This document shows positions 43,193-46,953 of a stretch of DNA of 64,000 bases, piece after piece. The stretch is from Callorhinchus milii (Eukaryota): positions 9,860,001 through 9,924,000 of the forward strand of contig NW_024704743.1 in NCBI RefSeq assembly GCF_018977255.1. Reading direction: 5' to 3'. Under the pieces are notes generated by a model. The model saw only the letters and a program-made list of their open reading frames with translations. It was not told the DNA's origin and searched no databases. Numbering within the stretch: position 1 is the stretch's first letter; the number at the start of each line of letters is the position of its first letter. The position numbers and the translations under genes were made by a program.

Positions 43193-44601
43193 AAGGTTGC
43201 CGGATTCAATACTGTACATCGTTCAATGGTTACATTTGGGCAGGTTAGCAATGTGGCCATACAGGACAGCCGGCGTGCTGGCGATAGGAAAGCGTGTTTA
43301 GTTTGGAGCAATAATACCGAGACTGCATGCGGCACCAACAACTTCAATGGTTGGTATAGGACCAGGGGCAATGATGCGCGAACAGCCAGGGCTGCTGCTT
43401 CCACTGCTTGTAAGCAGCAAGGAAGGCCTCGAGCCACCGGATCCAGTCGGTGTGAGTAGTAAGCCACGGGCCTCATCCGTGTTCCAAATGGTTGTAATAG
43501 GACAGATGCCATAAACCCATTTTTAACGCAAACAGTTTGAGTATATGGCCTTGCAGGGTCAGGATGCGCCAGGGTCTCTGCCCCAGATAAAATGGTTTTT
43601 ATAATTTCAAATGCCTTTATAGCCTCTGGATTCCATTCAATTGCATCCTGTGCCTTCATAGGGGCATCATAAATCAGCCCTAACAAGGGCTGAGTTAGCT
43701 CCGCATATGAAGAGATCCATGCACGGCAGAAGTTAGTCATTCCTAAAAATGACATCATCTGTTGTTTAGTTTCGGGTCGCGGAGCTTGCATTATTGCAAG
43801 CTTTCTGTCTTTTAATAAGGATTTTCCTTCCCTAGAAATTGCATGGCCCAGATATTTGACCTCGGGTAAACAATATTGCAACTTTTTTCGGCTCACTTTA
43901 TGTCCCCATTCTCCCAAAAATTTTAAGCAGGCCAGAGAATCTTGGCGGCAAATTTCGTTGGATGGGGAACATATAAGTATGTCATCTACATACAACAAAA
44001 CTTGACTGCCACCCGGGGGCTCAAATTTTGCCAGATTACTTTCCATACATTGTGAGAATATGGCCGGGGATTCAACAAATCCCTGTGGACATCTGGTGTA
44101 CGTATATTTCCTTCCCAAAAATGTGAAGGCAAACCAAAATTGGGAGGCCTTGTCAACCGGAATAGAAAAAAACGCATTTGCTAAATCAATTACTGTAAAC
44201 CAAGCTGTATCAGGTCGCAAATTGTTCAGCAAGGTATTGGGGTCGGGTACAACTGGGGTCCGGGGAATCACTGCCTTATTTACAGCCTGTAAATCCTGAA
44301 CCAATCGCCACCCTTGTGATGGCGCTACCTTTTTTACTGGGAACAGGGGGGTGTTACATGGAGAGTCAGGGCAATCCACTATGATGCCCTTCTCCTTAAG
44401 TTCCTTAATTATGGGTTCAATTCCTTCAATGGCCTCTGGTTTCATAGGATACTGCCGTTGGTATGGGCGGTGTGTTCCTTTTGGTATGATTTTAATAGGT
44501 TCAATCCCTTTTATTAGTCCTACGTCAGCTGATCCTTTGGACCATAGAGCATCAGGCAGAGCATTCAACTCCGCCTCCTGTTCTATTTCCACTCCTAACA
44601 G
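43193..44601 (-). CDS. pol: ERV reverse transcriptase + connection domain (in frame with gag-pro after a TGA; frameshift near 43193)
   Basis: [47 protein letters not shown] (43981-43992), [16 protein letters not shown]...[13 protein letters not shown]. Confidence 0.94.
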
Positions 44602-46953
44602 TCAGGGAACCATCTTCCCTGAGTGCATCTTCCTAACTCTTTCACATTGATACACCCAATTCAAACATTGTGAGTAGAGACCTGTCCTCGGGGAATACCA
44701 TATCCCTGCATCCTGAGTCTCTTCCCAATCCTGTGCTTTTATCCCACAATCTACCAGGTTACCCACTTGTTGCCATGACTTTTTGCATCTCTTTGCAATT
44801 GATACATGGGGGTTCCCTTCTCCCTGGTATAGCTGATCATCTAACGGTTGGAGTAAAACTTTCCCTCCCATATCAGTTGCATTCCAATATATACATTGAA
44901 TCGTTAATCGTGTGGAACTTCCCAATTTGAAATGTCTCTCATATGGCAACGAACTTCCCCCTTTTTCACGGTACCACATGGTACAGTGCAGATCCTCAGG
45001 CAGGTGGAAGTCACTTTGTTCCATGACCCGCTGGTGTGCCAATCTAAGCAGTTCCTGTTGGAATTGTCCTGGCCCTTCCTTTAACTGTAGGGCATAATAG
45101 TATTGTGGTTCCCCCCTTTCTTGGATAATTAGGGTATCTTCAATTTTTTTTTTGTACGTAACCTTAACTGCTTCCCATCGGTCGTCACCCATAGGTATCA
45201 CTCCTAACTTGAGTTTAGTTAACACATCTCTCCCTAGTAAATTAACCGGGCATGTCATTGATATAACCACTTGTGCTTCTACAGTCTCTTTATTCTTGTA
45301 ACAGAATTCAAGAGGTTCCGTGACGCATTGTGTTTCTAAGTCTCCGGACGCTGACCGAATATCAATTTTTTCCTGACTCTTTTTATAAGGAAAAGTTGCG
45401 TCTCTCATCGTAATAACCGTTCTACATGCTCCTGAATCGCATAAAAACGGTATGTCAATTCCATTCACTCTTAATGTCAACCAAGCACTCCCAGGAGACT
45501 GTATTAACGCCAATATACGTTCAGTCTCCTCTCTCTCCTCCTCTCCTTCTTCTTCGGGCTTTTGGGACTTCCACCGGTTTGGACAATCCCTTGCCCAGTG
45601 TCCCATTTTCCCACAAACATAACATTCTCCCCCATTATTGTTCTTTTGCTTCCTCTTTCTATTCTGCCATGGTTGTTTATTAACTTCTTGTGATATAAAT
45701 CCCTCATTATGCCTATTATTCCTCTTCTCTTCCCTTGTTATTCGTTCAAAATGGATGGCATGATCTAATACTGGCTGGAGTGCCCCTGTACTCCATGTTA
45801 TTAGATGTTGTTTTACCAATTTTGAAATATGGGGCACCATTCCCGCCAGAAATGCATTCTTAATTTGTTGTGCCCAAACTCCAGTATCATCATGTGGATG
45901 TGGTGGTTCGATTCCACTATTGGAATTAAACACCTTGCGCAATCGCGTATAGTATTGCATACACGTTTCGTCTTTTCCCTGAATACAATCCGTTATCGCC
46001 GAATAGTTACATCTGGCTCTATAAAATGTAACTATTCTCCCCATTAATTGGTCGAAGGGTCCCCAATAATCATGCTGGGAGCGGTTTGCTGCTACCGGTG
46101 GACGGTCATACATTCTTGGTGCTCCCTCATTGTCTAATGCTGTCCAATCTCCCCCGACCTGACACCATTCCTGACGCAACACCTCTCTTATGCACTGCTC
46201 GGTTTCTAAACTATTTAGCCTGTAACTTGCCATGGTTTGATACATAAAATCTCGAAATTCGGTTCCCCCTTGATTGGGATGGGGACAGGCGATCATTGCC
46301 CTCTTAACATCCTCCATTCCCCATGCCCTATACACGTACTGGGTGTTCCCCTGTCCGTCTGCCACTTGTATCATTGGGAAATTCCCTGCTGTTCCTACAT
46401 TTACCTGCATAGGTGGGTTTGAAGGGGAGCTCGGGAGTGCGGATTTGTTTTGATAATTATCATGGAGCCATCTGACATATGGGTCAGCATTGTTTGGCGT
46501 CCTCGGATTATATGCTCGGTTTAAAGGTGCCGTGGGCTGTTCTGACCCATACGCTGGTGGAGCACCATGCCCATTTTCCGGGCGTTGAGAGGCTGGAGTC
46601 TCTAAATCCTCCTTCCCTGTGTAAGCCAATAGTTTTGTTTTGGTTTCTGTCAATTCACCCAGCCGTCGATATTCCGTGGCTTTCATATGCCATACTTGTG
46701 CTTCCCCATAATGATATTTCAATTGTTTTTTCTTATCATCTCCACTTTTCTCTTTTATTTTATTCAATAATTCTTGTGTACTCTCAGGTTTTAATCGCCC
46801 ATCAAATCCAAATTTACGTTTCCACATTGTTTCCCAATCACCACTTCCTTCTACTACCTTATTCATAACCTTCGCATTTCGACTCACTAATTCTCGGGTT
46901 TCTTTCTTACAACAACTGCTGCGACAGTCCCCTTTACTGCCTACACACCCCAT
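44602..46953 (-). CDS. gag-pro: ERV Gag-protease-(putative 2H phosphoesterase) polyprotein, 783 aa
   Basis: N-terminal MGC (myristoylation), PPAY and PTAP late motifs, MHR-like QGKDETCMQYYTRL, CCHC knuckle CYVCGKMGHWARDC, protease FLCDSGA...NLLGRD, then HCT and HVS motifs. Confidence 0.92.
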   Translation of the reverse strand: MGCVGSKGDCRSSCCKKETRELVSRNAKVMNKVVEGSGDWETMWKRKFGFDGRLKPESTQELLNKIKEKSGDDKKKQLKYHYGEAQVWHMKATEYRRLGELTETKTKLLAYTGKEDLETPASQRPENGHGAPPAYGSEQPTAPLNRAYNPRTPNNADPYVRWLHDNYQNKSALPSSPSNPPMQVNVGTAGNFPMIQVADGQGNTQYVYRAWGMEDVKRAMIACPHPNQGGTEFRDFMYQTMASYRLNSLETEQCIREVLRQEWCQVGGDWTALDNEGAPRMYDRPPVAANRSQHDYWGPFDQLMGRIVTFYRARCNYSAITDCIQGKDETCMQYYTRLRKVFNSNSGIEPPHPHDDTGVWAQQIKNAFLAGMVPHISKLVKQHLITWSTGALQPVLDHAIHFERITREEKRNNRHNEGFISQEVNKQPWQNRKRKQKNNNGGECYVCGKMGHWARDCPNRWKSQKPEEEGEEEREETERILALIQSPGSAWLTLRVNGIDIPFLCDSGACRTVITMRDATFPYKKSQEKIDIRSASGDLETQCVTEPLEFCYKNKETVEAQVVISMTCPVNLLGRDVLTKLKLGVIPMGDDRWEAVKVTYKKKIEDTLIIQERGEPQYYYALQLKEGPGQFQQELLRLAHQRVMEQSDFHLPEDLHCTMWYREKGGSSLPYERHFKLGSSTRLTIQCIYWNATDMGGKVLLQPLDDQLYQGEGNPHVSIAKRCKKSWQQVGNLVDCGIKAQDWEETQDAGIWYSPRTGLYSQCLNWVYQCERVRKMHSGKMVP

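Follow-up and report, generated by a model that had tools for sequence, protein, structure and literature searches.

An in-frame UGA shared by epsilon-like endogenous retroviruses of fish, a candidate second readthrough stop between protease-2H and reverse transcriptase

The window analysed here is a stretch of 64,000 nucleotides from Callorhinchus milii (NCBI RefSeq assembly GCF_018977255.1, contig NW_024704743.1, positions 9,860,001 to 9,924,000), and it carries on its minus strand a provirus of about 7.5 kb, bounded by long terminal repeats (LTRs) at 47123-47656 and 40118-40662. One minus-strand open frame of 783 codons runs from an ATG at 46953 to a TGA at 44604-44602 and covers Gag with a CCHC knuckle, an aspartyl protease and a 2H phosphoesterase domain. 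The reverse transcriptase (RT) follows the TGA in the same frame (RVT_1, E 5e-29). Comparison with related elements indicates that this TGA is inherited and is not damage that arose after insertion. It is probably a programmed readthrough stop, the second of two in a clade of fish elements with the layout gag-UGA-pro/2H-UGA-pol. The coding features are as follows.

44602..46953, minus strand: Gag-protease-2H single open frame, 783 codons plus TGA, start ATG at 46953
45577..45627, minus strand: nucleocapsid zinc knuckle (CCHC), Pfam PF00098, E 1e-7
45505..45555, minus strand: acidic nucleocapsid-protease spacer EEEGEEEREETERILAL, the site of the first stop of the relatives, which is absent in the window
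45202..45480, minus strand: aspartyl protease with intact DSG motif, Pfam PF00077, E 1e-13, fold match to XMRV protease
44623..45105, minus strand: putative 2H phosphoesterase domain, CNPase-like, with HCT at 44988-44980 and HVS at 44808-44800
44602..44604, minus strand: in-frame TGA separating 2H from RT, in the context UGA-CUG-UUA; second stop of the clade
44538..44592, minus strand: predicted stem-loop downstream of the TGA, with a 9-bp core helix at 44554-44576
43084..44601, minus strand: RT and tether, in the same frame as the TGA, first in-frame ATG at codon 53
41507..43222, minus strand: RNase H and integrase, in a different frame in the window (break near 43150-43220)

An earlier reading made from the sequence alone had noted that no stop lies between Gag and protease and that a single in-frame TGA separates a putative phosphodiesterase (PDE) from RT, and both observations hold. 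The second junction reads GTT CCC TGA CTG TTA GGA GTG GAA. Between the zinc knuckle and the protease of the window there is neither a stop nor an in-register slippery heptamer, and a -1 frameshift at gag/pro was ruled out because this place lies in a single frame and lacks such a heptamer. No slippery heptamer was found near the window TGA. A run of ten A in the protease-2H linker (45143-45153, minus strand) forms an in-register slippery-like heptamer, and a -1 slip there would lead to an immediate stop and a protein ending after the protease. This run is not kept in the related protein P0004, and the contigs of the sequencing runs have no indel in it.

The 2H domain has no Pfam match. A protease-2H model predicted from 39 aligned sequences (mean pLDDT 90.9) has fold matches to XMRV protease and to mouse CNPase (E 2e-7), and the region between protease and RT has both HxT/S motifs, HCT and HVS. 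The model indicates that the domain between the protease and the TGA is a putative CNPase-like 2H phosphoesterase. In several relatives of the two-stop type, among them P0060, P0100 and P0055, one of the two 2H histidine motifs, the first or the second, has been lost, and 2H activity may not persist in all of them. In a fold search with the same model, the Env polyproteins of WEHV1 (Q9WHI8) and WDSV (A4GTG3) matched over about 190-200 columns (TMq 0.43), and this suggests that walleye virus Env contains a 2H-like domain. The WDSV-like Pol loci L016-L018 have no 2H domain.

Contigs were available from runs X1 and X3 of one study, from run X5 of a second study and from run X11. Contigs of X1, X3 and X5 span both the Gag/protease and the 2H/RT junction, with no other letter and no indel at either. 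Neither junction is an assembly error, because contigs of three runs from two studies agree there; X1 or X3 may be the source of the window assembly, and run contigs drop rare variants. The contigs show that both junctions are real, not that both are present in every copy. The X11 contigs (their RNA nature is a guess) cover 10 of 30 bins and neither junction. The pol frame break of the window at about 43150-43220 is not present in the contigs of X1, X3 and X5. A minor variant of pol (window 43000-43387), about 7% different and mostly by synonymous changes, is joined to the common contig in X1 and X3, and the contig to which the two pol variants are joined is the one that spans both junctions. 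This minor variant likely reflects recombination with a related element and suggests several copies and past recombination; contig depth gives no copy number. Its differences are synonymous in 21 of 25 cases, against 25% expected, and the pol of the window family is under selection and functional. The copy in X5 has four private pol changes, of which none is synonymous and one is a stop.

The RT comparison identifies the window element as a class I, epsilon-like fish endogenous retrovirus (ERV). Its best RT matches are 53-61% identical, those with names being teleost, and WDSV-like loci are 39-41% identical. Relatives were drawn from a protein search of 1.84 billion cluster representatives, which gave 767 matches, the best 150 of which were analysed, and from 19 DNA loci returned by scans with the RT alignment. 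The 150 proteins comprise 91 with Gag only, 44 with protease and 2H only, nine with protease only, three with 2H only, two with Gag, protease and 2H, and one unrelated protein, and the nearest named Gag among them is also from Callorhinchus milii (66% identity). There are 49 proteins that reach the end of the 2H domain, and 45 of these terminate within 15 residues of one alignment column; three of the others stop further away and one continues. The alignment profile was made from 38 of the matched proteins, and the shared end is not a product of the profile. P0004, 61% identical to the window protein, terminates at the same residue.

In the DNA loci, an in-frame TGA lies between pro and RT in 5 of 19 (L001, L002, L003, L006 and L007). 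Protease, 2H and RT are fused in five others (L004, L005, L010, L011 and L019), protease is joined to RT without 2H in three (L016-L018), and six (L008, L009, L012-L015) went unscored because they were too short, broken or too distant. Including the window, the sequences with the second stop make up four families with 51-64% RT identity; L001, L002 and L006 are 86-100% alike. The second stop is UGA and in frame in 6/6 sequences, and in the five that were measured 19-22 codons separate it from the downstream conserved LW of RT. In L003 (835-1332) the middle unit is the protease alone, 165 codons long, and 2H has been lost, but both TGAs and the frame are kept. The possibility raised by the sequence-only reading that the TGA is ancestral is borne out by its occurrence at the same place in the four families and in those 45 of 49 proteins.

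The clade was defined in a tree of 140 RTs as the smallest group containing the four DNA-scored sequences. It has 25 members: these four, 20 open reading frames (ORFs) that start no earlier than the stop position, and one deletion-like join of Gag to RT. None of the 71 fused 2H-RT Pols falls inside it, and three ORFs that start at RT fall outside it. FastTree support was 0.999 and 0.947. SH-aLRT support was 95.4 when 53 of the 140 taxa were compared over RT residues 1-430 (value from the best tree of a search that did not finish), and in the same tree the window groups with the two-stop locus L003 (93.9). In the protease-2H tree, 50 ending forms lie apart from all fused forms. Named members of the clade come from Oryzias, Takifugu, Oreochromis, Gymnodraco, Syngnathus, Anabas, Brienomyrus and Nothobranchius.

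The relatives also have a first stop. In the clade loci that show the gag end (L001, L002, L003 and L006), an in-frame stop is present there in 4/4, always as TGA CTA G, and thus with UGACUA, which is a type II readthrough hexamer according to PMC13517186 (published work is cited from excerpts here and below). L002 can be read over 1,914 codons, gag to integrase, with two stops and no more, one per junction, and L001 (1,780 codons) has exactly the same two. All four loci have three units, gag, pro and pol, with two candidate recoding sites, which the window has not; the units all lie in one frame, and -1 frameshifts are not the candidate recoding type. Sequence comparison thus gives the clade the layout gag-UGA-pro/2H-UGA-pol in one frame, most likely expressed by double readthrough. 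The sequence-only reading had described a layout without a gag/pro stop, and this is true of the window element but not of the family. It had also set out what would count against it, sister copies with a conventional gag/pro stop and a sense codon in place of the TGA; the gag/pro stop was found in all four loci, which are relatives and not copies of the window element, and a sense codon in none of them.

The matched proteins give a similar picture. Among the best 150, a knuckle without a protease motif after it is found in 70, the knuckle abuts the protease motif in one, apparently by deletion, and an intact Gag-protease-2H fusion is found in none. P0006 and P0033 look like fusions but were not counted, being NCBI gene models without a protease active-site motif or knuckle, and P0126 was discounted as deletion-like. 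No protein of 430-1371 residues with the nucleocapsid-protease-2H region came up in a word-based search, which is weak evidence, and single-protein scans of viral contigs gave no match. P0002, the closest Gag (63%), stops at the point from which the window continues into the acidic spacer; a contig edge is possible for P0002. The distance from the knuckle to the catalytic Asp is 48 residues in the window, 58 in L001 and 93 in L003. The fused gag-pro appears to be a derived state of the window element, the direction of loss following from parsimony: the second stop would have been gained once and the first lost in the window element, because the L001/L006 branch and the outside loci all keep the gag stop. 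In the fused sister group, the long ORFs P0233, P0294 and P0298 run from Gag-like sequence into Pol with no stop, and P0233 (1,795 aa) joins knuckle, protease, 2H and RT in a single frame.

The sequences show the frames, how the second stop is conserved and distributed over the clade, a first stop in the relatives and the 2H fold; ribosomal readthrough, three tiers of product and their packaging are what we infer. Readthrough best explains the second stop, which is UGA and in frame in every case and is followed by a first in-frame ATG anywhere from codon 2 to codon 103 (2, 2, 30, 53, 101 and 103 in the six sequences). The suggestion of the sequence-only reading that RT and integrase are made by readthrough is consistent with this lack of a conserved ATG. 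In the clade, most ribosomes would terminate after Gag, some would pass the first UGA to make Gag-protease-2H, and a share of those would pass the second UGA and make RT-integrase too. The outcome would be three tiers, with protease and a captured phosphodiesterase above RT and integrase. The window element would derive from a two-stop ancestor and have lost the first stop itself, so that protease and 2H would be part of each Gag made, and the level of Pol would depend on the remaining UGA alone. The earlier proposal that protease and PDE are made at Gag level may thus apply to the window element, and to it alone; it does not describe the family, in which UGA-CUAG stands at gag/pro in 4/4 relatives.

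The second-stop hexamer of the window is UGACUG, and type II signals are UGACUA or UGACGG. The leaky motif CARYYA is matched at 5/6 places by CUG UUA in the window and by CAA ACA in L003 and L007. The type I readthrough motif is given as UAGCAAUUA in PMC13517186. The predicted stem-loop of the window starts about 10 nt after the TGA, with z of -2.4 over 125 nt and -3.5 over 80 nt (nested folding only). The folding windows over this hairpin rank 3rd and 5th of 269 gag-pol windows by z and 1st and 3rd by energy; z of -3 is reached by 11 of the 269, and the hairpin is suggestive only. A downstream stem or pseudoknot was what the sequence-only reading had proposed to look for; a stem-loop is predicted in the window (80-nt z -3.5), but it is not common to the five relative loci. 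The MoMLV type of signal has a pseudoknot 8 nt after its stop.

Several results weigh against inherited double readthrough. The SH-aLRT support of the RT clade falls to 51 on RT residues 100-390, and the split between ending and fused forms in the protease-2H tree has support of only 0.54. The second stop is present in only 5/19 loci, three of which are 86-100% alike, and protein ends from short contigs could singly be contig edges. The context of the second stop is not conserved (CUG, GAG, GAC, CAA), with no exact type II hexamer. The 80-nt z is -1.2 to +1.5 in the five relative loci, compared with -3.5 in the window, with the same result at 110 nt, and a shared RNA structure after either stop was not found at 45, 80, 110 or 160 nt. 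An ATG lies within 2-3 codons of the stop in L001/L002 and in the NCBI models P0193 and P0198. Two rounds of few-percent readthrough would yield little Pol.

The gag-pro fusion of the window could be a lesion in a non-autonomous copy, spread by a two-stop helper, from which a short in-frame stretch was lost; the second stop would be programmed all the same. This explanation is quite possible, but we lean somewhat against it; it bears on the fusion alone and does not conflict with double readthrough in the clade. Neither the best 150 of 767 protein matches nor the 4/4 clade loci include an intact Gag-protease-2H fusion, the nucleocapsid-protease spacer is shorter than in the relatives, env is a remnant, and the private pol changes of the X5 copy, none synonymous and one a stop, also fit a lesion. 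MoMLV mutants with the stop changed to sense fail to replicate (PMC13517186). However, the lost stop of the window is not the sole gate, and Pol would stay rare, as in ASLV. The protease and both 2H histidines are intact, and the same fused junction is found in three runs of two studies. The two pol variants, 7% apart, that join the junction-spanning contig suggest more than one copy and past recombination.

The second TGA could also be a true terminator. Pol would then be translated from its own spliced message, as foamy virus Pol is, or after re-initiation just past the stop. The window, L003 and L007 have an AG that closes 7 nt downstream of the TGA, and in the window and L007 a pyrimidine-rich stretch precedes it. 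An ATG stands at codon 2 in L001/L002, several RT ORFs of the clade begin within 2-4 residues of the stop, and there is no common downstream structure. Against this, the window, L003, L006 and L007 have no early ATG, and L006, 86% alike to L001, has ATA where L001 has ATG. The upstream sequence is purine-rich in L001, L003 and L006, and the frame and the identity of the stop as UGA are kept in 6/6 sequences, which separate initiation would not need. We consider separate production of Pol unlikely.

That a single gag-pol frame acquired a nonsense mutation after insertion, the other origin of the TGA that the sequence-only reading had offered, fits the other damage in the window copy (pol frame break, env remnant) and a sister group with protease-2H-RT fused without a stop (L004, L005, L010, L011, L019 and 71 Pols), but it is highly improbable, barring misalignment of the loci compared, since the same stop stands at the same place in four families (51-64% RT identity) and 45 protein clusters and the fused forms fall outside the clade.

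Readthrough at two stops can be compared with known retroviral strategies. Gamma- and epsilonretroviruses such as MoMLV and WDSV use gag-pol readthrough, with UGA in SSSV, ZFERV and a cane toad ERV (PMC13517186). The window clade is similar in having an in-frame stop that would be read through for the enzymes, in the use of UGA as in fish and frog elements, and in its class I RT. Gamma- and epsilonretroviruses have one stop, between gag and pro, with pro and pol in one unbroken frame, whereas in the window and five loci this frame is interrupted by a TGA; the stop of the window lies between pro/2H and RT, and the relatives have both stops. Readthrough between pro and pol is absent from the recoding cases in the excerpts of PMC13517186.

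In PMC12789967, readthrough is placed at the gag end, two frameshifts are described for MMTV and HTLV, a dUTPase belongs to betaretroviral Gag-Pro, and the ASLV protease lies inside Gag. The tiers of Gag, of Gag-Pro and of Gag-Pro-Pol in MMTV, MPMV and HTLV resemble those proposed for the clade, and an accessory enzyme stands beside pro in both cases, dUTPase in betaretroviruses and 2H in the clade (PMC12789967). Beta- and deltaretroviruses use two -1 frameshifts in overlapping frames, whereas the clade has one frame, two UGA and a class I RT. By analogy, the clade layout is most likely the double-readthrough counterpart of the double frameshift of MMTV/HTLV. Alpharetroviruses (RSV, ASLV; PMC12789967) are like the window element in having the protease in the gag frame, the DSG motif and one recoding site before pol. 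This ASLV-like plan is the closest match to the window's own layout, but ASLV has no 2H domain, and the window has an in-frame UGA before pol that would have been reached by loss of the upstream stop. ASLV reaches pol by a -1 frameshift. The window RT is in the same frame as gag-pro, and a frameshift of this alpharetroviral kind into pol was not found.

CNPase-domain additional ORFs in epsilon-like teleost ERVs were described by Basta et al. 2009, as cited in PMC4977317, and the window is similar in having a CNPase-like domain in an epsilon-like ERV of fish. The citing sentence makes no mention of stops or readthrough; the separate ORF may have had prior notice. The two-stop layout was not found in the literature searched, with subscription papers, repeat-library entries and supplements outside its scope, and it is not described in the excerpts of PMC4422223, PMC8672886 and bioRxiv 2024.07.05.601823.

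On a bolder account, a widespread fish clade (medaka, fugu, tilapia, pipefish, killifish and others) would use two successive UGA readthroughs, a strategy missing from the reviews consulted, and would thereby dose protease and a captured phosphodiesterase of immune-evasion type above RT. The window lineage would have converged on the alpharetrovirus plan, with the first stop dropped and the second strengthened by a hairpin, and would have replicated in this form. We put this account forward tentatively, at slightly less than an even chance. The mode of pol expression is used to separate retroviral groups, and readthrough is taught as single and at the gag end. A class I clade with a pro-pol readthrough stop would fill a missing combination, two readthroughs beside two frameshifts, and would mean that a three-tier dosage in which an accessory enzyme accompanies protease evolved on two occasions. 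The window element would show that tiers can be rewired through loss of one stop. The clade also offers dozens of natural UGA contexts, and it holds a warning for annotation, as both stops in fish genomes are being annotated as damage or as separate genes.

The remaining features of the provirus are as follows.

47123..47656, minus strand: 5' LTR (TG...CA), carrying a 48-nt tandem repeat
40118..40662, minus strand: 3' LTR
40113-40117 and 47657-47661: target-site duplication CGCCC, 5 bp
47104..47121, minus strand: candidate primer-binding site, which we take to be tRNA-Pro-like
40798..41506, minus strand: env remnant, short and broken, assigned by position, no Pfam match at cut-off

The 5' and 3' LTRs differ by two substitutions and one 11-nt indel. 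The provirus is young, because the LTRs are nearly identical and the 5-bp duplication flanks them. The 48-nt tandem repeat is present in both LTRs (40449-40548 and 47454-47553) and is a possible enhancer repeat. Only 845 nt lie between pol and the 3' LTR, and this space holds the env remnant. A LINE RT fragment, presumably CR1-like, adjoins the provirus (37698-38818). Four tRNA-Ala-like calls elsewhere in the window (11910-11979, 16356-16429, 19942-20012 and 58527-58598) are probably SINE heads.

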